In this document: one piece after another, positions 6,534 to 36,905 of the stretch
Layout of the letters: the number at the start of each line of letters is the position of its first letter
Position numbering within the stretch: the first letter of the stretch is position 1
Source of the DNA: a virus
Virus genome (UHGV): UHGV-0356033
Strand: one strand, 5' to 3'
Length of the DNA stretch: 45,424 bases
Program-made: the position numbers and the translations under genes
Notes under the pieces: generated by a model
Databases searched by the model: none
The model's input: the letters and a program-made list of their open reading frames with translations, nothing else
What the model was told of the DNA's origin: nothing

Positions 6534-8030
6534 TTATTTCTTTTTCGTCAGGAACTTCGGTTCTAGTCCATCGACAGCCATACCCAGAATGGTACGTGCA
6601 GTCAGTGTACGTTTACCGCCTTTGGTTTCCTGGTCTTTAAACATCCAGTATTCTACCGTGTTGTCCAGAATTTCATTCCAGTCCCACATCTCGTCAATCA
6701 GTTTGTAAATCTCACCCATGCTGAGATGATACTTCATTTCAAGACGATGGTAGTTGTTTTGCATATACGCAATTGCCGCAGTGATTTCTAAAGCGCGACG
6801 TAAGCGGGCGTTATCAGAAATCATATCACGGATCGTCGTGCGTTGGAATTTCACACCAGGTAGAATATCCAGTTCTTTGATGGAACCGCCACTACCGCTT
6901 GATGTGAAACCAAAGTCTGACTTCTTCAGCGTGTCACTTAAATAGTGCCACAGGCTCAGGTGATATAGCAGACCCATTTCCTGAGAGAAGATCATCTGAA
7001 ATTTCACACCGGTGTGACCACCCTTCGCACGATACTGGGTAAAGGTGATAATCTTCAAGTCGTTTACCGACGCATTCATCGCTTTAGAACGTGACGTCGG
7101 ATAAAGTTCTTCGTTAACACCCGTCTGCGCGTTATAGCTCTGGTCTTTCTTCAATTCCCCTGATTTCGTCGCGACGATAAAAGAGTTTGTTAAAAAGCTA
7201 AGCTGACGGCGAGGAATACCTGCGAATTTTAAATCGTCGTTGGCGTCGTCGAGAATTTTTGCATTTGCTTTTTGAGCCTGTCGGCCACCCGCCATCGCTT
7301 TCCCAGAGTCATCGGCCATCTGTGCCACGAAGCCCATGTAAAAACCACCGCGTGCAAACGCAGACGGCCAGCGGCTCATCATATTCGATTTTTGCAGCGC
7401 ATCGTGGGCGTTTAGGATGTTCTGATCAGAATCCCCAATATCAGTTTTTGCGTGTTTGTCTTCCAGCGAACTGGAATGCCACTCTGACAGGGAGTCGATA
7501 GAATAAAGCCAGGGGTCCAGGATTTCTTTTAACTTACGACGAACTGGATCGGGGAACGGTGTTACGCGGGTTTTACCAGACATATACTGCTTGAAGCGTT
7601 TTTCAACTTCATCACGAATATAATCACTGTAATACTGTTCCCCGGGCATTACGTCAGAACCGACCAGGTTATAACGACCTTCGTGGATAAGTTCCAGTAC
7701 GGATGTTCCGTCGTCGATACCGTTGGCGTTCATGGCAGAGATGTACCCAGTTTCTAAACGATCGAGGGCAGCGGACACTTCTGTATCGTACTTAGAACCC
7801 CACTCTGCTTTATAACGTTGCAGGATTTGGAAGATACAGAAATCTAACAAGGTGGATTTAAAGGTGTTTCCGCGACCTGCGAAACCCATGATGTGGGCAA
7901 AACCACCGTTAAGGTAGTACAAACCATCTTCACCTTTTTCGTAGTTACCTAAGGCATGATCCATGATGGTGTAAACGTTAAAACGTGGACGAATTACTTC
8001 ACCGATAACTTGCTTAGTTGGGCCTGCCAT
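6534..8030 (-). CDS. hypothetical protein (498 aa)
   Basis: Long ORF; ATG 8030-8028 with GGAG SD; contains GFAGRGNTFKST segment that is only loosely P-loop-like, so no function called. Confidence 0.6.
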   Translation of the reverse strand: MAGPTKQVIGEVIRPRFNVYTIMDHALGNYEKGEDGLYYLNGGFAHIMGFAGRGNTFKSTLLDFCIFQILQRYKAEWGSKYDTEVSAALDRLETGYISAMNANGIDDGTSVLELIHEGRYNLVGSDVMPGEQYYSDYIRDEVEKRFKQYMSGKTRVTPFPDPVRRKLKEILDPWLYSIDSLSEWHSSSLEDKHAKTDIGDSDQNILNAHDALQKSNMMSRWPSAFARGGFYMGFVAQMADDSGKAMAGGRQAQKANAKILDDANDDLKFAGIPRRQLSFLTNSFIVATKSGELKKDQSYNAQTGVNEELYPTSRSKAMNASVNDLKIITFTQYRAKGGHTGVKFQMIFSQEMGLLYHLSLWHYLSDTLKKSDFGFTSSGSGGSIKELDILPGVKFQRTTIRDMISDNARLRRALEITAAIAYMQNNYHRLEMKYHLSMGEIYKLIDEMWDWNEILDNTVEYWMFKDQETKGGKRTLTARTILGMAVDGLEPKFLTKKK

Positions 8031-13490: not shown

Positions 13491-14159
13491 CTATCTAAGA
13501 ATATTTTTAGCGAAAAAAGGATCGACTGTAAACTCCTTCACCTGTGAATCATAACCCGAATGTATTTGATCGCTACTGAGCAAATACCGGTCTAAGTCGT
13601 GCGGAAGAATCCAAGAATCACCTTGTTTAAAAATACCATAATCTGTTGTTCCAGAGGAAGAAATGATTTCCTCTGGAGACGAATAGATGTGGCGTAAAGC
13701 GAGATCGGACGGCTTTAACACGATTAATCGAACGGGAAGTTGACTGACTGCCTCTTTAATAAACTGGTCGCGATTAAACCAAATTATTTTTTCGGGGTAG
13801 GTTTCGAATTCAGCCCATGCCCGCGTGATAACTAATTTGGAAATCTTTTTCAACTCTTCAGAACGCTCTGCGTAGCCGATACACTCCTTGCGTACTTCAT
13901 GATTTTCTATCGATGCTGTGATTTTTTGGAATAGGTGTTGTTGGAAAAAGCCGTTCTCCGGGATATCACAACCCGCGTTGTATAGTGCAATGATCTCCCA
14001 CAACAACGAAAGAGAAAACACAAATGCTAACTTTTCCACAACTTCCCAATCTTCGGAGTAAGGGGCTTTAAAGCCCCAATACTGCCGTGCGTTATACATA
14101 AAGTGAGTTTGTAAAAACCGGGGGGCTTTTGACAAGACCTCACTATAAACGATCAGCAT
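13491..14159 (-). CDS. hypothetical protein (222 aa)
   Basis: ATG 14159-14157 overlaps stop of upstream RNase H gene. Confidence 0.55.
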   Translation of the reverse strand: MLIVYSEVLSKAPRFLQTHFMYNARQYWGFKAPYSEDWEVVEKLAFVFSLSLLWEIIALYNAGCDIPENGFFQQHLFQKITASIENHEVRKECIGYAERSEELKKISKLVITRAWAEFETYPEKIIWFNRDQFIKEAVSQLPVRLIVLKPSDLALRHIYSSPEEIISSSGTTDYGIFKQGDSWILPHDLDRYLLSSDQIHSGYDSQVKEFTVDPFFAKNILR

Positions 14160-15673
14160 TCAAGCTCCTTATCCGTCAATATTCGTTTGTTTGAATAATA
14201 GCCACACCACAACCCATGATATTTTTCCCCGATATAGACCAAAGCGTATTCGATATACTGCCGTTCTGGACGCCGTACCGCCACGTAGAATCGTCCTTCT
14301 GGTTCTTTCATACGGTTGATTTCCGTACGCGTCGGTATGTCGATACCACGAGTAAGGATAGTTTTAACCTTGTTTTTACTACCAGGGATATGGATGGTTA
14401 CGTCAAAACCTTTATCTACGTTACGATAAAAATCTTTCTTCGGCTTACCTTTCTCATCGTAAAGCAGGTCAGTAATGTCGTTCATCACGACTGAGTTTTT
14501 CCCTTCCATGGCATCGCGTAACCAACCTGCAAGTTCATCACGAATCGTAATGCAGCGATAAGACAATAACGCGGGACGAAGAATTCGTGTAATCGAAAGA
14601 TCTTCAAACATCCATAGGTTTTTGTCTTCGCTAAAATGCATCCGATCGATAGGAATACCGTTAGCTGCGGCTTCTGCGAACTTCTTACGTTTTACGAATA
14701 AGTTAAATACAACGGCGATGGGATCAAATTGACGTAAACGGGGCACCCCTTCCCACGCTTTCGCAGAGTGGGTATTTACCAACTCGTATACGTTATCCCA
14801 TGGTTCTTTGGTAAACATTACGCAGAATTGTGCGTCTGGAATGTACTTACCAACGAAGACGATATCGTCCTTCTGTTTTGCATGGTTCCCACCGAACATG
14901 TAATAAAGTTTATTACCCTTAACTGTAACAGTGGGATGCGGTTCGTTCACCATCGGGTAACAGAACTTCGTAACACAGATATCGGGAAAAGCAGACAAAT
15001 TGACACCTTCACCAACAACTTCTGGTTGCTGTTCTTCCTCAGGCATCTCGTCTTTTGACCAATACGGTGTATAGTCTAAGCCCTCCCCTCGAGCCGAAAT
15101 ACTTGAACCCTTCCGTGCTAACTCGTCGGCACGTTCGTTTCCATAACGTCCAGAGTGGCCTTTAATCTTAAGGACACGAACACCTTTCCCTTCTTTCTTT
15201 AACCGCTGTTTAACCTCCCACATCCGTTGGATTAATTCCAAGTTCGCAATGGGTGTACCGTCCGCACGCCGCCATCCTCGTGCTGCCCAACCGTCAATCC
15301 AATCGTTATACGTGTTGACAACGTAAGATGCGTCGATATAGATAACATAGTTTTTAGCAACAAAAGGTGCGTGTTCGAAGACGGTCAAGAAAGCCACGAG
15401 TTCTGCAACGTCGGAGTGTGACATTTTTGGTACAGGCACAACACCGTCAATAAACTCCACGGTTTCTGGTAAAGGTGGAAGTTTTTCATCCTTGTTTATC
15501 TGGCGGTATCCTGACGTCGTAATCCCCTCGGGAATAGAGGGATGGCGATAAACCCGACCATCCTCAATCGTTTCACGATTAAATAAGTATCCATGAATCC
15601 CCGCTCCTGTACCGAGCGGGGAGGTCAAATGGCTACCATCCGTGTAAATTACTGCAACATCAACGTTCTTCAT
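14153..15673 (-). CDS. RNase HI-domain protein fused to an uncharacterised C-terminal domain of about 315 aa (506 aa)
   Basis: N-terminal 190 aa carry RNase HI hallmarks: IYTDGS...G.G, VAEL, IYIDAS, NDWIDGWAARGW..ADG.P..N.EL, KGHSGRYGNERADELARKGS (compare E. coli RnhA FTDGS, [43 protein letters not shown]). Confidence 0.7.
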   Translation of the reverse strand: MKNVDVAVIYTDGSHLTSPLGTGAGIHGYLFNRETIEDGRVYRHPSIPEGITTSGYRQINKDEKLPPLPETVEFIDGVVPVPKMSHSDVAELVAFLTVFEHAPFVAKNYVIYIDASYVVNTYNDWIDGWAARGWRRADGTPIANLELIQRMWEVKQRLKKEGKGVRVLKIKGHSGRYGNERADELARKGSSISARGEGLDYTPYWSKDEMPEEEQQPEVVGEGVNLSAFPDICVTKFCYPMVNEPHPTVTVKGNKLYYMFGGNHAKQKDDIVFVGKYIPDAQFCVMFTKEPWDNVYELVNTHSAKAWEGVPRLRQFDPIAVVFNLFVKRKKFAEAAANGIPIDRMHFSEDKNLWMFEDLSITRILRPALLSYRCITIRDELAGWLRDAMEGKNSVVMNDITDLLYDEKGKPKKDFYRNVDKGFDVTIHIPGSKNKVKTILTRGIDIPTRTEINRMKEPEGRFYVAVRRPERQYIEYALVYIGEKYHGLWCGYYSNKRILTDKELEC

Positions 15674-15675
15674 TC

Positions 15676-16410
15676 TTAATCCCTGGTTAATTGATCACGA
15701 ATCTGCGGCGCAACATACTCGCCCGTTTTCAGTTCTTCGTGACAGGCTTTGGCGCGTTCAAACCCGTATTGGCGTGTGACCAAAGCGAGGTGGTAAATAC
15801 GTGCCGTGGTGTAGGCTTCTTTTGCTGCATCCCACATAGCGTGGTGCTCAAAAGCGGGCTTACCGCGTGTCCAGTAAATTTGCTCTACAGTTAGGTCAGG
15901 CTCGAAACCAAATGCAAAGGCTAAACGTTCTGCGGTACGATCGCTATCCAGTGCACTGAATTTACGGAACTTCCCTGGCGGAATATCACACTGTGCGAAC
16001 GCGTTCATGAAAATCGGTGCATCGAAGTCAGGACCACGCATGGTAATAACAAATTCATGTTTTGCGGTAATCTCCCCGAGCCATTTTTGCATCGCCCACA
16101 GTGCGTCCGGCAATGCTGTCGTCCCACCCCATGCTTCCGCATAGGCTTCACGAGACGGTGCGTATTCGGGTTCGCCTTTACCTTCCCACCAACCAACGGT
16201 TTGTGGGTCTTCGTGGAAAATGGCTTTTGCTTTAGGATCGTTAGGATCAATACGGATGTATGAGGAACCGACCATTTTCAATGTAGGGACGTCAAAAGCC
16301 ACTAAACCTGCACTTAACAGATAAGCATCGGGATGTAATGATTTGGTTTCAGCATCAGCGCCAATAACCAGCGTCGGTGTGTACGGGGTGACAATTTTTG
16401 GGTAGGTCAT
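15676..16410 (-). CDS. DEDDh-type (DnaQ-like) 3'-5' exonuclease (244 aa)
   Basis: Exo I-like DAET near N-terminus, Exo II-like AFD, Exo III-like HHAMWDAAKEAY; ATG 16410 with AGGAGA SD. Confidence 0.5.
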   Translation of the reverse strand: MTYPKIVTPYTPTLVIGADAETKSLHPDAYLLSAGLVAFDVPTLKMVGSSYIRIDPNDPKAKAIFHEDPQTVGWWEGKGEPEYAPSREAYAEAWGGTTALPDALWAMQKWLGEITAKHEFVITMRGPDFDAPIFMNAFAQCDIPPGKFRKFSALDSDRTAERLAFAFGFEPDLTVEQIYWTRGKPAFEHHAMWDAAKEAYTTARIYHLALVTRQYGFERAKACHEELKTGEYVAPQIRDQLTRD

Positions 16411-16452
16411 GTTGAATTCTCCTGTTAGTCTACATTAAAATAGTTGCAAACG

Positions 16453-16496
16453 TTAAAAAGAAAGACCCTCCTGTACCACGAAAGGGTACAGGAGGG
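16453..16496 (-). terminator. intrinsic terminator downstream of gene 16501..16956
   Basis: 12-bp stem 16466-16477/16485-16496 with 7-nt loop; T-run on minus strand. Confidence 0.6.
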
Positions 16497-16500
16497 GGTG

Positions 16501-16956
16501 TCAGTACAAACACGATGTCAAGTATTGGTTGTACGAATCGAGTAGTGTCTGACGGTCGGAGCGGTAATTCCACAACAAATTATTGAGTTTACGCGATAGG
16601 TCACGGCTAATCTCCTGGGGCGTTAAAGAGCTTTCATCGAGAGATAAGCGTTCAGGTACAACATGTAACTTCGGTAACTCATAACGCTCACAAAGTGGAG
16701 CCAGCATTGGTGGGCTCCAGCCACGTTTAACGGCTTGTTGGTTTAAATTTCGGGTGTAGACATAAACGTAGTAAGCATAGGTGTTGACATCCGCAACATA
16801 CTCACGCATTGCATTATTGTCAATTTTCCAATTCACCATTATTGGTGGTGTAGGAGGAAGTTCCAGTGGCCTATAAGCTGGACGTTTAACTTCGTCGCCG
16901 TAGCTATTACTCACCAACCCCACGAACACCATCATGATGAATAACAGCATTTTCAT
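16501..16956 (-). CDS. secreted protein (151 aa) with Sec-type signal peptide
   Basis: ATG 16956 with AAGGAG SD; N-terminus MKMLLFIMMVFVGLVSNSYG; no lipobox Cys. Confidence 0.55.
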   Translation of the reverse strand: MKMLLFIMMVFVGLVSNSYGDEVKRPAYRPLELPPTPPIMVNWKIDNNAMREYVADVNTYAYYVYVYTRNLNQQAVKRGWSPPMLAPLCERYELPKLHVVPERLSLDESSLTPQEISRDLSRKLNNLLWNYRSDRQTLLDSYNQYLTSCLY

Positions 16957-16959
16957 CAA

Positions 16960-17463
16960 TCACTCCTTAGAAGACGTTAGCGTCTTTATGATCTCCTGTC
17001 GAAAGCTGTTCGCATTTAAATTGCCAACAGGTCTCGCCGAAGCCTCTTTACGTTGTTCTGGTGTTGAAGCTGGATTAACAGGAGTTTCTGGTTTTGTCGA
17101 AGACAGATCCTTCGCCGTACCGCTCGCTTTCGATGAATTAAACGTGCTTTCATATGGCGGTTTCTGGCCGAGGCAAACGAAGAGCCTGTCGTATAACTTC
17201 CCATTATCTTCTTTTAGTTTATCTCGATCTTGTTTCATCTCTTGGTAAGACTGCGACATATACGTGTCATGAGACTGCACTGCAACGAGCGCGTGAAACT
17301 GTTGTACATAGGCGTAGGAGACGAAGCCAGAATACGACAACAAGATCGTGATGATTAAAGTCATTATCTTGCTTGCTCTTGATACGTTTTCTCCTTCTCC
17401 TGGTTTAAATGCTTCCATTAACATCTGAAGGAAGAACGGAAGCACTTTAAAAAATGAACCCAT
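16960..17463 (-). CDS. membrane protein (167 aa), single TM helix plus coiled-coil and S/T/P-rich tail
   Basis: TM segment IMTLIITILLSYSGFVSYAYV; stop overlaps start region of downstream secreted-protein gene. Confidence 0.5.
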   Translation of the reverse strand: MGSFFKVLPFFLQMLMEAFKPGEGENVSRASKIMTLIITILLSYSGFVSYAYVQQFHALVAVQSHDTYMSQSYQEMKQDRDKLKEDNGKLYDRLFVCLGQKPPYESTFNSSKASGTAKDLSSTKPETPVNPASTPEQRKEASARPVGNLNANSFRQEIIKTLTSSKE

Positions 17464-17488: not shown

Positions 17489-18862
17489 ATGTTAGACTTA
17501 CAAGGTTTTATTCAGATACCGGCACTGTTTGACAATCAGGACGGCGTCACCGCTCCGGTGGGCGAGCTGTCGGATTTGACACTCTCGTACGCGAAGAGTA
17601 AACAGACGTTTACTAAAACCAATTTGCAAGTTCAATTGGTGACTTTTACGTCTAAACGAGAAAAACAGACGGTTGTTGTACCAGCCGAATTTTCTGATCA
17701 TATTCTAACCGTTTCTCAATGGATTTACCAGCAAGCCATCTTGGGGAATCTGAGAAATGACGAACTCGAATTCCAGCGCCTGTTATTAGGCCAATTCCAA
17801 TCAACCATTTCTGGTGTTCAGTCTGGTGCGATGATACAGACGAACAGTAACTGGTTCCCACGTTGGGTGAGCTGGAAATATGAAGTAACGGCAGATCAAG
17901 TACAAGATGACACTGATGTAGATAATCAGATCATTGTTTGGTTCTCGGATGAAGACTTCGATCAAGATTACACAGGGTTCGAAATCGAAGTACAGATGCC
18001 GATTTCACCAATCGACACATTTTTGTCGACCAAGTCAGTCGTTGAAAAGGCGATGGAAGGGTTTAACCTTACCGAACACCATAAGAAAATCAATGAGTTA
18101 ATGGCAGGGTTTCCTTATACCGCCATCCAAACCAACTACTATACTTGGCACGATCAAGAAAACTACGAGTCTACCCTAGTTGTCCCAATGTCGGTTATTA
18201 TCTACGGACGTGCGGGAAAAAACCCAACGAAAATAAAGCAAGCGTTGCGAGAACATATTCTCGCTAATTCTAGCTTTACTGTCCCTATCGGGGTAAAAGT
18301 ATTTCCCGAAATTTTCACTACCACGAAATTTACAATTGTCCCTGGATGGAAAATTCGTGGGATACCCAATGAGGAAGATGTGGCGGCGCTTTATTCCCCC
18401 ATCCTTCCATATGATTTCTGGGTCAAAGCTATCAGTCGGTTTGGAGAATGGGCAGACCAGACGGTAGCAGAAAGAAATACTAAAACGATCAGTAAACCTA
18501 CAACAGACGTAACTGACTTACCAACAGTTTATAAATCATTAAACTGTGTTGTAATCAGTGGGCCGGAAAACGATACACGGAAAGCGACCTTACACGAAAC
18601 TATCCCGGATTATGCGTTAATTGCGACGACTAACCCTGATATTGCGCGTATGTCGAAAACAACGACCGAATGGTTGGCGTTATTCTTCCAGGCACTTATT
18701 GCTGCGGAAGAATACCACCCGTATCAAACCAGCTTAGATGTTGTAAAACTGGTCGATGAGGCCGACCCTGATAACTACTTCTGGGTGTTTGAATACGACA
18801 ACGTAGAATATCGTATCCTGTCTCGGAAAGCGAAATGGTACACCGAGTTAGACGAGGAGTAA
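17489..18862 (+). CDS. hypothetical protein (457 aa)
   Basis: Long plus-strand ORF; ATG 17489. Confidence 0.6.
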   Translation: MLDLQGFIQIPALFDNQDGVTAPVGELSDLTLSYAKSKQTFTKTNLQVQLVTFTSKREKQTVVVPAEFSDHILTVSQWIYQQAILGNLRNDELEFQRLLLGQFQSTISGVQSGAMIQTNSNWFPRWVSWKYEVTADQVQDDTDVDNQIIVWFSDEDFDQDYTGFEIEVQMPISPIDTFLSTKSVVEKAMEGFNLTEHHKKINELMAGFPYTAIQTNYYTWHDQENYESTLVVPMSVIIYGRAGKNPTKIKQALREHILANSSFTVPIGVKVFPEIFTTTKFTIVPGWKIRGIPNEEDVAALYSPILPYDFWVKAISRFGEWADQTVAERNTKTISKPTTDVTDLPTVYKSLNCVVISGPENDTRKATLHETIPDYALIATTNPDIARMSKTTTEWLALFFQALIAAEEYHPYQTSLDVVKLVDEADPDNYFWVFEYDNVEYRILSRKAKWYTELDEE

Positions 18863-24972: not shown

Positions 24973-25158
24973 CTAATTCCGCCATTCGCATTCGCGTTGA
25001 CGCCAAATTGAACCCCATGATAGTTTAATCAGATAAGATGAAACTACCCATAAAATCATCACCACACAAAACATGACATAAAGAACCGCTAGTATGGACA
25101 TGAAGCCAAACCCTGCCGCATCCACAATACGACGGAACCAATCAGTTTGCATAAACAA
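24973..25158 (-). CDS. small membrane protein (about 59-61 aa)
   Basis: Hydrophobic core FGFMSILAVLYVMFCVVMILWVVSSYLI; TTG 25158 with GAAGGAG SD 6 nt upstream (or ATG 25152); overlaps 3' end of ATPase gene. Confidence 0.4.
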   Translation of the reverse strand: MFMQTDWFRRIVDAAGFGFMSILAVLYVMFCVVMILWVVSSYLIKLSWGSIWRQRECEWRN

Positions 25159-27646
25159 TTTTTACTCCTTCGTTATACACCGCAGGCAATGTCACCCCTT
25201 CCGGTTCGATGACACAGTACGATGCTTCATTAAGTTTAGAATGAACCTCGGCTTCGTGGGAGACTACCAACAGTTGAGAAAATTCTCCCGAGTTTGCTAA
25301 CGTTTTAATAAAACCGACCAGGTTGTTACGGTGCTCCTCATCCATGCCTTCCGAAGGCTCATCCAAAAGCAACGGAAACTGATGCAACTTCAGCGCTTTG
25401 TACGCAGTCAGCCTGAACATCAGATTAAATATCGCACGCTGCGCCTTAGACCCTTTACGCACGTCAGGAACAGGCTCAGGATGCGTTTTTAGCTGGACAG
25501 GAAAAGTATAATCCAAATCGCCGTCAGTGAGGTCACAAGGCATAACGCGCATGGGGTACGTCCAGACCTGTTCGATATAACGCGTCATTAACTCTGTGAT
25601 TCTAACGATAGCGTTGTAAAAATACTTTCTAAGTACACCCTTTTCTGGCGAGAAGGCTTGAATCATCAGTTTGTTATTGAACTGCTGGGCTTGTAAGTCA
25701 GCAAGTTCGCGTTCCAAACTGTTGAGCTGATTCAATTCATTTTCCATCTGACGATAACGTTCGCGTGCGGTTGTAAAAGCATCCAGCTTCCCTTCTCGAG
25801 CACGTAAGAGTTCCTCGACGACCGTATTTGTCAACGTAACCTTAACATCACTCTCTAACCGTTCGAATAACGCACTGAAATCATCTACAGCACGTTTAAC
25901 ATTCACCAGATAGGTAAGTGTCGTGTTAGCCAGTTCGTGCTCTCTACGACGCATTGAGAGCATCTCTGTGGCTTTACCTAATCGTGACTGTTGAAAAGCA
26001 ATTTTCTGTTGTAAAGCACCATCGACGTTACCAACGGCCGCTACGGCATCCTGCCATTCTTTTTCCGCCTTCACTAACCGTTGTCGGGTTTCATGGTACT
26101 CAATAGCAGAGTACAACTCACCGTCAAACGCTGCGCATAGACTCCCGAACTGCTCGCGTGATTCTGTGAAAACGTTACGTTCTTGCAAACGCTTAAAGAA
26201 CATGCTCAATACCGGGTCCTTTGAATACGTCAGCACAATCTCACGAACCTGCCGCATATAAGTTACATCAGATTCTAACTCAACACGATCGCGTAATAGG
26301 GCCTCTAACTGCGTTTGCAGTTCCGTGCGCTGCTGCTGTTGTCCGCGAATCGAAGACTCAAGTTCAGGTAAAGAACGTGTAACACCAGGCCGAAACTTAA
26401 ACCGGCACTGCGGACAATCCACTTCCGCTGTTTCTAAGTAGTGATTACGTTCGTGATTTAAATTCTGTAAAACGTTCTCCACTCGCTGGAGTCTATCCCG
26501 CAACCCTGCGGTTTTTTGATCCATCACCAGAAGCCGTTCTTCCAAAACATTGAGTTTTTCAGTTGAATGAATTGCGTCCAGTGTTGTTCCTAACCGTTGC
26601 CCCCAGACACGCGCATCGGTAGCCGCACGAAGTTGGTCTAAATTGACGTTGTCGTTAAATAGACCCGGAAAGAGATGCTCGGTGTCCCATTTGGTAAGTA
26701 ACTCACGTAAACGCGCCAATGTATTCTTGAGACCTTCGTGATTCCGCATCAGGTAGTCTTGTCGTGTCGACTCATCCATCAATAACGACAAGTCTTTATT
26801 CAACATCGATACCTCTGTTTCAGTAGACACGACAGCTTCGCGGGCCGTCGCTTCGTTTTGTCGCGCGGCCAGTATCTGTTCATCAGTAGGCAGTCCACCA
26901 CGATGTTGTAATATTGCGTCGATGGTTGGGCCCAAGCTGTTTAATAACGCTTGGATTGTTTCGATGGTGACGGCACGATTTAATCCTGGCAACTGTTCGA
27001 TTTCTCGGTTCAGTTCACGTAAATCCGATTCCAAACCTTTTAATCTCGTCGCCAACTGCTGCCGTTCTTCCTCGTTCTCAATAACACGCGTCCGCAATTC
27101 GGCGATTTTACGGCTGGTGATTTCAATACCCCCATTTAAGGCAGTAAGGTTTTTACGTAAACGTTGATAAAACCCTAACGCGTAGGTGAGGTCAGAGGTA
27201 CTTAAACGGTAAAACCACTTACGACGCAGTTCCGTTCCTGCATCCGTTAAAAGCACTTCTCCGTTCAGTAGTTCTTTAATCTCTTTTGTAATGCCTGTGA
27301 TTTCTTCAACACGGGAGTTGTAGACTTTCGCATTACCTTGCTCGACGATCTTTGCCCCCGTGGTCAAGTTCTCAATATCACAAACCAGTGAGTTCCCTTT
27401 ACGGGCAACTTTGAAACGATAGCGTTGATCGCCAACTAAACAGTAGTTCGTGTAAGAACCGCCGTCTCTGAATTCAGTTTTAGCCGGTGCTAAGGGTAAG
27501 AACACAGACAGTAGACTGGTTTTCCCGCAGCCGTTCCCACCCAGGATAATTGTTGTTGGAGACTGGATAGTGAAATCGAAAGTTTCAATTTCATGTAACC
27601 CCATCCCCGTAAAACCTTTGAGTATAATGCGTTCAACTTTTAGCAT
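25142..27646 (-). CDS. Rad50/SbcC-family (SMC-like) ATPase with coiled coil and CxxC zinc hook (834 aa)
   Basis: Walker A GGNGCGKTS near N-terminus; long coiled-coil middle with CPQC; C-terminal signature-like GSKAQRA, Walker B LLLDEPSEGMD, H-loop VVSHEA; start set at ATG 27646 (GGAGG SD) rather than track 27721. Confidence 0.6.
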   Translation of the reverse strand: MLKVERIILKGFTGMGLHEIETFDFTIQSPTTIILGGNGCGKTSLLSVFLPLAPAKTEFRDGGSYTNYCLVGDQRYRFKVARKGNSLVCDIENLTTGAKIVEQGNAKVYNSRVEEITGITKEIKELLNGEVLLTDAGTELRRKWFYRLSTSDLTYALGFYQRLRKNLTALNGGIEITSRKIAELRTRVIENEEERQQLATRLKGLESDLRELNREIEQLPGLNRAVTIETIQALLNSLGPTIDAILQHRGGLPTDEQILAARQNEATAREAVVSTETEVSMLNKDLSLLMDESTRQDYLMRNHEGLKNTLARLRELLTKWDTEHLFPGLFNDNVNLDQLRAATDARVWGQRLGTTLDAIHSTEKLNVLEERLLVMDQKTAGLRDRLQRVENVLQNLNHERNHYLETAEVDCPQCRFKFRPGVTRSLPELESSIRGQQQQRTELQTQLEALLRDRVELESDVTYMRQVREIVLTYSKDPVLSMFFKRLQERNVFTESREQFGSLCAAFDGELYSAIEYHETRQRLVKAEKEWQDAVAAVGNVDGALQQKIAFQQSRLGKATEMLSMRRREHELANTTLTYLVNVKRAVDDFSALFERLESDVKVTLTNTVVEELLRAREGKLDAFTTARERYRQMENELNQLNSLERELADLQAQQFNNKLMIQAFSPEKGVLRKYFYNAIVRITELMTRYIEQVWTYPMRVMPCDLTDGDLDYTFPVQLKTHPEPVPDVRKGSKAQRAIFNLMFRLTAYKALKLHQFPLLLDEPSEGMDEEHRNNLVGFIKTLANSGEFSQLLVVSHEAEVHSKLNEASYCVIEPEGVTLPAVYNEGVKIVYAN

Positions 27647-27676
27647 ACCCACCTCCATAAAGACGGAGTGTGGTGT

Positions 27677-27719
27677 AAAAAGAAAAAAATAAAGAAAGGG
27701 AGAACCCGAAGGTTCTCCC
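27677..27719 (-). terminator. intrinsic terminator downstream of gene 27725..28333
   Basis: Stem 27698-27706/27711-27719 (GGGAGAACC/GGTTCTCCC) with CGAA loop; long T-run on minus strand. Confidence 0.6.
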
Positions 27720-27724
27720 AAACG

Positions 27725-35939: not shown

Positions 35940-36905
35940 ATGGAGAAATCCAGTGTTGATTTTTTCTCAATTGGTATCGTCGCGGAAGACAAACCCCGTG
36001 GTACAGATCGGGTAAAAGTGATACCAATTGAAACCAACTTTGCTAACCCTACCGTGGTGCAATCTGTTTCTTCAGCAACTGAAAAGACACACGAAACATC
36101 TGGTGCAACAGATAACCTAACCATTAAGACGGGAAACACGATAACGGCAAAGTGGTGGAAGTTTAACTCCAACCGAATTAATTCCCCTGACGTTAAACGA
36201 GAAGACTACGTTATCTTGTTACGTTTGGGGAAAACCGATATTTATTTTTGGATTGATCTGAACTTCGCTAACGTTAAGCGATTAGAAGATGCGGTTTATG
36301 CGTGGTCGGCTGACCCTGAAAACCAAATGGCGGATGACCTGTCGAACGCGTATGTGTTGAATGTCTCGACAATTGACAAACATATCACGCTAAGAACAAG
36401 TATGGTAAACGGCGAGAAAGCGGCGTGGTTGTTTCAGTTTGATAATGCAAACGGTACGTGGCAGTGTGTTGACCATAAAGGAAACAAGTATTACATTAAC
36501 TCGGTGGAAGACGATTTAGGTTTTGAGAATGCGATGCTTTCAAAAGTGAACATCAACAAAGAAGATGCGTTCATTTATTCAAAGCGTTCTATTAACCTGG
36601 AAACGAAAACGATTAATGAAAAATGTGAAGTCCGCAATACAGAAGCAGCGAAATCCGTTACGTTTAAAACACAAACCTGGTTAACGGAAGCGGGAAGTTC
36701 GACAACGTTTAAAACGCCGAACTTTAAACAAGAAGGGAAGGAAGCGATGTTCACCGGTAATTTGGAAGTCGCTAAGAACTTCAAATACGGTGGTACGGGT
36801 GAAGGTGTGGGTGTCTTTACGGTTAAAGATGCCATTATTTCCGGTATTACCTTTAGCGTTCACATTCACCAAGGTAAACATGGCCCGACATCACCTCCGC
36901 AGTAA
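35940..36905 (+). CDS. hypothetical protein (321 aa), possibly virion or tail associated
   Basis: ATG 35940 with AAGGAA SD; sits at head of rightward tail-fibre region; beta-rich T/N/K composition; function not recognised. Confidence 0.55.
   Translation: MEKSSVDFFSIGIVAEDKPRGTDRVKVIPIETNFANPTVVQSVSSATEKTHETSGATDNLTIKTGNTITAKWWKFNSNRINSPDVKREDYVILLRLGKTDIYFWIDLNFANVKRLEDAVYAWSADPENQMADDLSNAYVLNVSTIDKHITLRTSMVNGEKAAWLFQFDNANGTWQCVDHKGNKYYINSVEDDLGFENAMLSKVNINKEDAFIYSKRSINLETKTINEKCEVRNTEAAKSVTFKTQTWLTEAGSSTTFKTPNFKQEGKEAMFTGNLEVAKNFKYGGTGEGVGVFTVKDAIISGITFSVHIHQGKHGPTSPPQ

Follow-up and report, generated by a model that had tools for sequence, protein, structure and literature searches.

We describe here a gene of the virus genome UHGV-0356033, studied in a stretch of 45,424 nucleotides that we refer to as the window; it occupies positions 14153..15673 on the minus strand, stop codon included, and encodes a protein of 506 amino acids (aa) in which an RNase HI domain is joined by a linker to a family-specific C-terminal domain (hereafter the C-domain). 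From comparison of the predicted protein we conclude, with high confidence, that it is the orthologue of ΦKZ gp155 (also ΦKZ155 or Nlp2; gp176 in ΦPA3; PHROG 3265), and as such adds a divergent new member to a known chimallivirus core family. The wider explanation, that this orthologue is a core replication factor of the Chimalliviridae with the domain roles proposed below, is in our judgement very probably correct. The gene call itself is routine. What we add is the distribution of the C-domain (approximately 1,050 clusters) together with a lead on its structure that is weak but consistent, and that has real potential: the C-domain bears a remote likeness to PCNA-type folds, in phages that are reported to be clamp-less.

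Identification of the gp155/Nlp2 orthologue

We regard the window protein as the orthologue of ΦKZ gp155 because an end-to-end match is combined with synteny. Residues 1-504 align with positions 2-496 of the 496-position profile of PHROG 3265 ('ribonuclease') at E=1.6e-169, and BLASTP aligns residues 5-494 with residues 3-476 of PHIKZ155 (E=5e-31, 25% identity), with window D114 opposite ΦKZ D102. The two proteins belong to the same length class (506 aa versus 482 aa), and they share their two-domain architecture and their catalytic residues. When 50,697 phage records were searched by tblastn, 162 of them covered at least 80% of the 506-aa protein, in phages that range from SPN3US-like to phiKZ-like. 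The closest relatives are those of Erskinevirus and Seoulvirus phages: the best matches came from Erwinia phage phiEaH2 (66.5%; 'putative ribonuclease H'), Salmonella phage SPFM19 (a Seoulvirus; 63.8%) and Erwinia phage Kwan (57%), so that identity is 57-67% to these orthologues, against approximately 25% for the phiKZ-like Pseudomonas phages. A megablast search of the locus against the same 50,697 records returned no match; the phage is therefore new at the DNA level, and our comparisons were made on proteins.

The surroundings of the gene are equally instructive. The window also encodes a UvsX-like recombinase (6534-8030) and, in divergent orientation, a homologue of gp157, a virion protein (17489-18862; E=3e-49). 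Further along come the genes of an SbcC-like protein (25142-27721) and of a baseplate protein (35940-36905); the relative order of these homologues is that of the gp152-gp165 block of ΦKZ, the likeness of the two neighbourhoods extending to UvsX, gp157 and SbcC alike. We found essentially nothing that counts against the identification. Nucleus formation has been shown experimentally in a close relative, Erwinia phage Asesino (PMC11724907). Chimallin is not encoded in the 45-kb window, which is the only place where we looked for it.

An earlier account of this DNA, made without database searches (the sequence-only reading), had pointed to positions 14153-16410, and these coordinates proved exact: the open reading frames of the 506-aa protein and of a 244-aa exonuclease lie at 14153..15673 and 15676..16410, both on the minus strand. 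Neither open reading frame is a chance one, since the 506-aa protein matches PHROG 3265 and its C-domain is found in 1,050 cluster representatives.

The RNase HI domain

Residues 1-197 (15083..15673, minus strand) make up the RNase HI domain. Pfam RNase_H (PF00075) matches residues 81-190 at E=5.1e-21 (75.8 bits; the cutoff is 25.8), and a sequence search of the PDB recovers RNase HI/H1 chains of solved structure at E about 1e-11. In an alignment that includes ΦKZ155 and E. coli RNase HI, residues D12, E91, D114, D183 and H173 fall on E. coli D10, E48, D70, D134 and H124; the corresponding codons are 15638-15640, 15401-15403, 15332-15334, 15125-15127 and 15155-15157, all on the minus strand. 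Across 41 family members no change is seen at E91, D114, D183 or H173, and conservation of D12 is at least 90%. The fold, the DEDD carboxylates and the histidine of a type-1 RNase H are all present in the 506-aa protein, and the catalytic motifs that the sequence-only reading had picked out are thereby confirmed. Judged by its residues, the domain is predicted to be a catalytically complete RNase HI of the bacterial type.

Two features set this domain apart from E. coli RNase HI and from the catalytic domain of human RNase H1: a family-specific insertion of approximately 45 residues between strands 2 and 3, with the basic protrusion retained, and its fusion to the 285-aa C-domain. In contrast, the type-1 enzymes of bacteria and eukaryotes either stand alone or carry an N-terminal hybrid-binding domain. 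The linker between the two domains (residues 198-221; 15011..15082, minus strand) is acidic and appears flexible: the predicted local distance difference test score (pLDDT) is below 50 at residues 210-221. Furthermore, the predicted template modelling score (pTM) is 0.57 for the full-length model and 0.91 for the C-domain alone, from which it follows that the model fixes no orientation of the RNase H domain relative to the C-domain.

Function of the ΦKZ orthologue

ΦKZ155 is a core gene of the nucleus-forming jumbo phages, and its product has already been described, and studied by experiment, as an N-terminal RNase HI domain followed by a C-terminal domain that is well structured (PMC12571901). 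The C-terminal extension, which the sequence-only reading had presented as novel, thus belongs to the PHROG 3265 family, and the two-domain architecture is in print for ΦKZ155/Nlp2. ΦKZ155 is a bona fide RNase H that cleaves RNA:DNA hybrids in vitro, an activity that the D102N mutation abolishes; antisense knockdown of either ΦKZ155 or ΦPA3 gp176 halts infection immediately after initial nucleus formation, and genome amplification is blocked; and the D102N mutant, which is devoid of RNase H activity, still complements (PMC12571901). The essential function of ΦKZ155 is therefore independent of its nuclease. ΦKZ155 is essential at a checkpoint between formation of the phage nucleus and genome amplification, and is so through something other than RNase H activity; this separates it from the type-1 RNases H of bacteria and eukaryotes, in that the ΦKZ protein has an essential function for which catalysis is dispensable. 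It is also known that Nlp2 is nuclear cargo, and that its import depends on particular residues of Imp1/PicA, among which H300Y, R306L and E310G matter (bioRxiv 10.1101/2024.03.27.586873). The import and amplification data apply to ΦKZ and ΦPA3 only, and not to the window protein.

We hypothesize that the window protein would behave as its ΦKZ orthologue does: made in the cytoplasm, it would be imported into the phage nucleus via Imp1/PicA, and it would be needed when the newly formed nucleus matures by genome amplification, a stage at which dead catalysis would be tolerated. Its essential activity may sit in the C-domain, or else in non-catalytic binding of hybrids; the RNase H activity could add the removal of primers or R-loops at the fork, and the catalytic residues are presumably under purifying selection. 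A role in replication, one of those offered by the sequence-only reading, is thus the best-supported of them, the ΦKZ orthologue being nuclear and needed for amplification. However, primer removal alone, as that account had envisaged, cannot be the whole story, because D102N (the equivalent of window D114) still complements.

Distribution and conservation of the C-domain

The C-domain comprises residues 222-506 (14156..15010, minus strand). When modelled alone it is predicted to adopt a compact fold of 285 aa (pLDDT 93, pTM 0.91). Some 315 residues of unrecognised sequence had been noted in the sequence-only reading; that this part is not a common known domain was borne out by our searches, whereas its extent was overstated, the folded domain being 285 aa. 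Thus, a search of Pfam at E<=10 with 24 members gave nothing beyond scattered noise and no family match, and a profile search of PDB sequences gave no match to a known family.

With an alignment of the C-domain only we then made a profile search of 1.84 billion cluster representatives, which returned 1,050 proteins at E<=0.001, 814 of them at E<=1e-10. The following statements concern the best 150 of these 1,050. Nearly all are 470-560 aa long with the C-domain at the C-terminus, and in every complete protein examined it is fused behind an RNase H-like region. Candidates for a stand-alone C-domain were sought among the short matches, but the four that we examined are N-terminally truncated fragments: P0117 lies on a 902-bp contig and begins at base 2, and P0084, P0070 and P0113 begin within the RNase H domain (the check covered these four, and left out P0179 and the shorter partial matches). 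As no convincing stand-alone C-domain was found, the fusion appears to be obligate, and the suggestion that other phages might carry the RNase H and the C-domain as separate genes is rejected, at least for the best 150 of the 1,050.

One of the exceptions is P0134 (585 aa), which begins with a Macro domain. Behind it come an RNase H-like stretch that is degenerate and gives no Pfam match ('YVHTAEG' in place of 'YTDGS'), and then an intact C-domain. This combination of a degenerate RNase H with an intact C-domain suggests that it is the C-domain that cannot be dispensed with. P0134 also ties the family to macro-domain proteins; the nuclear cargo protein gp104/Nlp3 of ΦKZ is listed as one of these.

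We also considered whether longer members might be triple fusions of exonuclease, RNase H and C-domain, which would have served as a Rosetta stone for a link between them. This was rejected: the 668-752-aa variants carry homing-endonuclease modules instead. There are four or five such proteins (P0074, P0090, P0181 and P0186 among them), in which a GIY-YIG catalytic domain and/or an I-TevI-type DNA-binding domain lies N-terminal to the RNase H; they look like insertions of a homing endonuclease or intron into a gp155-like core gene, and they recall what has been described for the RNA polymerase genes of chimalliviruses, namely intron endonucleases.

Within the C-domain the following motifs are conserved: GNHAKxKDD...GK..PD (G262, H264, K266, D270, G275, K276, D280), RPxLLSYR (P367, L370, Y372, R373), NDITD (D399, I400, T401) and IPxR (P447, R449). 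In a comparison that spans SPN3US-like and ΦKZ-like members (20-25% identity), no variation is seen at G262, D270 or T401, and hardly any at H264, K276 or D399. Such conservation is what would be seen if the C-domain were an enzyme belonging to a family not yet described (such as another nuclease, a transferase of nucleotidyl or phosphoryl groups, or an enzyme that modifies DNA), with an active site drawn from H264/K266/D270/K276/D280 and D399/T401. A borderline profile match in the PDB (E=0.016), to the endonuclease region of influenza PA, would seem to point the same way, but we reject it as a chance match because E becomes 0.24 when ΦKZ155 is omitted and because the conserved motifs are missed. 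On balance we consider an enzymatic C-domain to be rather improbable.

A remote likeness to DNA clamps

According to a comparative study of jumbo phages, no classical sliding clamp is found in the phiKZ-like phages of group 1, all of which carry RNase H1 (PMC7824862). Chimalliviruses reportedly replicate genomes of more than 200 kb by means of a PolB and without a recognisable sliding clamp, primase or fused proofreader. It is in this setting that the structural comparisons of the C-domain model attract attention. Its best matches are HUS1 (score 6.5; 178 residues aligned), RAD9A (5.8 and 5.5), the sliding clamp of African swine fever virus (ASFV; 5.3), MEC3, T4 gp45 and RAD1 (5.2 in each case), archaeal PCNA (4.8), the bacterial beta clamp (4.8; two chains) and PCNA of Chaetomium thermophilum (4.5), with UL44 of cytomegalovirus, PF-8 of Kaposi's sarcoma-associated herpesvirus and UL42 of herpes simplex virus further down the list. 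Matches to structures other than clamps (ATP-grasp ligases, hot-dog thioesterases) span only approximately 75 residues. The same clamps recur, below the RNase H matches, when the full-length model is used for the search.

These results are strengthened by Foldseek, which relies on a different representation of structure: in a search of the PDB, PCNA occupies ranks 1-6 (best E=3.4e-3, probability 0.54), and the matches include the PCNA-FEN1 and PCNA-RNase HII complexes. PCNA-family clamps (PCNA, 9-1-1, T4 gp45, ASFV, UL42/UL44/PF-8) are thus the best structure matches of the C-domain by two methods. Clamps make up a very small share of the structure library (by estimate, not by count), and for that reason their dominance of both lists is not due to chance. 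Moreover, the C-domain is of a size that fits a clamp protomer with two subdomains, and in the predicted secondary structure its C-terminal half, with the order alpha, three beta, alpha, three beta, is compatible with a clamp subdomain. Taken from the model, then, the nearest known fold to the C-domain appears to be that of a PCNA-type DNA clamp, a likeness that is weak and remote, but consistent.

Several observations weigh against a clamp. The Foldseek TM-scores (template modelling) are 0.22-0.28, and no Foldseek match reaches E<=0.001. HHalign against an alignment of 28 T4 gp45 sequences gives a probability of 0.06%; no clamp family of Pfam is matched at E<=10 by the 24 members, and no clamp by the PDB profile search. 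By sequence, the C-domain does not belong to the clamp family, whether PCNA, beta clamp, gp45, 9-1-1 or herpesvirus PAP. The N-terminal half of the C-domain departs from the canonical beta-alpha-beta-beta-beta order, and the invariant polar motifs GNHAKxKDD and NDITD are of a kind met with in active sites or specific binding sites more than in a sliding clamp. An HHalign comparison for internal duplication, at three split points, gave a probability of 0.2%, which is uninformative, and our literature search found no paper that ties gp155 to a clamp or a processivity factor.

With these points in mind, we put forward as our preferred, though tentative, mechanism, drawn from the model, that the C-domain might be a divergent PCNA-like platform, bound to DNA, that serves as a processivity factor for the clamp-less phage PolB. 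It is possible, if doubtful, that it represents the 'missing' clamp of the nucleus-forming jumbo phages, one that would be independent of a loader in the manner of herpesvirus UL42/UL44. Clamps tether nucleases of the RNase H type and flap nucleases to the replication fork (PCNA-RNase HII, PCNA-FEN1); the C-domain would similarly hold PolB on DNA, with the difference that its RNase H is tethered covalently. Were this so, the need for ΦKZ155 in genome amplification, with or without an active nuclease, would be accounted for, the protein being in effect a tool-belt of the PCNA-RNase HII/FEN1 kind with its tool built in, and two puzzles would be joined: the essentiality of ΦKZ155 and the missing clamp.

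The dependence of Nlp2 import on specific Imp1 residues (above) raises a further alternative: the C-domain could be chiefly a module for cargo recognition, import or docking that is read by Imp1/PicA, or an anchor at the import site or shell. The replication role would then fall to the RNase H fold, as a non-catalytic sensor of RNA:DNA hybrids, and the authors of the ΦKZ155 study do propose that this fold is sensory rather than catalytic. We think this assignment of the C-domain unlikely. Other cargo (UvsX/Nlp1, gp104, gp171 and the non-virion RNA polymerase) is without a C-domain, and different cargo use different Imp1 interfaces; in addition, 285 aa with invariant polar motifs over 1,050 clusters exceeds what an address tag needs, and the nearest folds of the C-domain are DNA-binding clamps.

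The upstream DEDDh exonuclease

The gene for the 244-aa protein (15676..16410, minus strand) lies directly upstream of the RNase H gene. Its product matches the Pfam family of Rv2179c-like 3'-5' exoribonucleases (PF16473; E=2.2e-11, 44.2 bits, above the cutoff of 27) and the exonuclease family PHROG 255 (E=1e-43). In five homologues of 30-67% identity the residues D19 and E21 (Exo I, DxE), D130 (Exo II, D), H189 and D194 (Exo III, Hx4D) are invariant; their codons are 16354-16356, 16348-16350, 16021-16023, 15844-15846 and 15829-15831, on the minus strand. With all five residues in place the protein carries, as far as its sequence can tell, the full signature of a Rv2179c-like, DnaQ-like DEDDh enzyme, and the sequence-only reading was right to call it DnaQ-like.

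Unlike the DEDDh family at large, this stand-alone exonuclease is confined to a single branch of the chimalliviruses. In phiEaH2, SPFM19, Cronobacter phage CR5 and Vibrio phage pVp-JHP1101, too, it either immediately precedes the RNase H gene or overlaps it (the last of these enzymes being only 30-33% identical to that of the window). By tblastn, 65 records are found at E<=1e-5, in the SPN3US/Erskinevirus/Derbicusvirus/pVa-21 branch only, and a search at E<=1 adds just the small exonucleases of temperate phages. Its limitation to one branch makes the exonuclease a clade-specific accessory to the core gene, and a family-wide pairing of exonuclease and RNase H can no longer be upheld. We considered ΦKZ gp65 as a possible counterpart and rejected it, as gp65 is SbcD-like.

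The PolB of group-1 phages is divergent and has no fused 3'-5' exonuclease, a stand-alone exonuclease being encoded elsewhere (PMC7824862). By analogy with that report, the window exonuclease is most plausibly a stand-alone proofreader for such a PolB; coupled in translation to the RNase H gene, it may be a clade-specific 3'-5' nuclease that proofreads or trims ends for the same replisome. Two points speak against a proofreader: no homologue was found in ΦKZ or in Erwinia phage RAY by tblastn at E<=1, and the Pfam family to which the protein belongs is named for exoribonucleases.

The latter point also has a bearing on a quite different suggestion. The sequence-only reading had thought of a breakdown of the host's nucleic acids or of signalling nucleotides; on this view the exonuclease and the RNase H would form an offensive or anti-defence set, the nucleotides being those of immune signalling. 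Small DEDDh exonucleases are able to degrade short oligonucleotides, Rv2179c-like enzymes are 3'-5' exoribonucleases, and a 'putative exonuclease' of RAY is cytoplasmic, but we found no homology between the latter and the window exonuclease. As ΦKZ155 is nuclear and needed for amplification of phage DNA, and the gene sits within a replication and recombination neighbourhood, we consider an offensive role highly improbable for the pair, and prefer that of a proofreading or end-trimming accessory.

Annotation of the exonuclease orthologues is uneven: they are labelled 'putative endodeoxyribonuclease', 'exonuclease', '3'-5' exoribonuclease', 'putative exodeoxyribonuclease' or 'hypothetical protein', and the 'endo' label has no sequence support. 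Several genomes of the Salmonella phage SPFM series have fragmented or frameshifted versions of both the RNase H and the exonuclease genes (P0050, P0052, P0053 and P0055; H101, H137 and H140), and some of the SPFM entries for these genes were joined from several pieces; the fragments are probably sequencing or assembly errors in the records, and not biology.

Organization of the locus

The pairing of the exonuclease and RNase H genes is as tight as had been claimed: the stop codon of the former is followed, after a gap of 2 nucleotides, by the ATG of the latter. This translational coupling distinguishes the window from ΦKZ, which lacks that exonuclease. The stop codon of the RNase H gene in turn overlaps the start of a 222-aa gene (13491..14159, minus strand; PHROG 9472, function label unknown) by 7 nucleotides (ATGCTGA), with a preceding AAGGAG site, and on account of this overlap and this site we place the 222-aa gene in the same operon. 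Only the C-terminal 100 residues of the 222-aa protein match PHROG 9472 (E=4.6e-14). The order of the RNase H and 222-aa genes recurs on Logan contig L009. In ΦKZ the equivalent position is taken by PHIKZ154, to which we found no similarity in the 222-aa protein; this downstream partner is thus another difference between the two phages.

At the other end of the unit, an AT-rich leader with an AGGAG ribosome-binding site (16411..16455, minus strand), read from the sequence, precedes the exonuclease gene, and we presume it to be the position of a phage promoter. Beyond it, a terminator scan, RNA folding and the sequence itself indicate an intrinsic-terminator-like hairpin with a T-tract (16456..16496, minus strand; the hairpin proper at 16466-16496), which has a 12-bp stem, a folding energy of -23.9 kcal/mol and z=-4.1. 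It sits within the 90-bp gap that lies 5' of the exonuclease gene, between that gene and a 152-aa open reading frame. The hairpin would close the upstream unit, and the exonuclease gene would therefore be the first of a new transcription unit that continues across the RNase H gene. A scan for sigma-70 promoters gave matches that were no more numerous than in shuffled sequence, as expected of phages that carry their own RNA polymerases.

Upstream of the hairpin, two small conserved genes (16501-16959 and 16960-17463, both minus strand; PHROG 8165 and 8719, function label unknown) take the place of ΦKZ gp156 and gp156.1. The N-terminal stretches of their products are hydrophobic (MMKMLLFIMMVFVGLVSNSYG...; predicted membrane helix). 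No transfer RNA genes were found in the window (1-45424), and its G+C content is approximately 44% throughout, without a compositional island, the slight rise to 48.6% being over 15001-16000. The 167-aa gene and the divergently transcribed gp157 homologue are just 25 bp apart.

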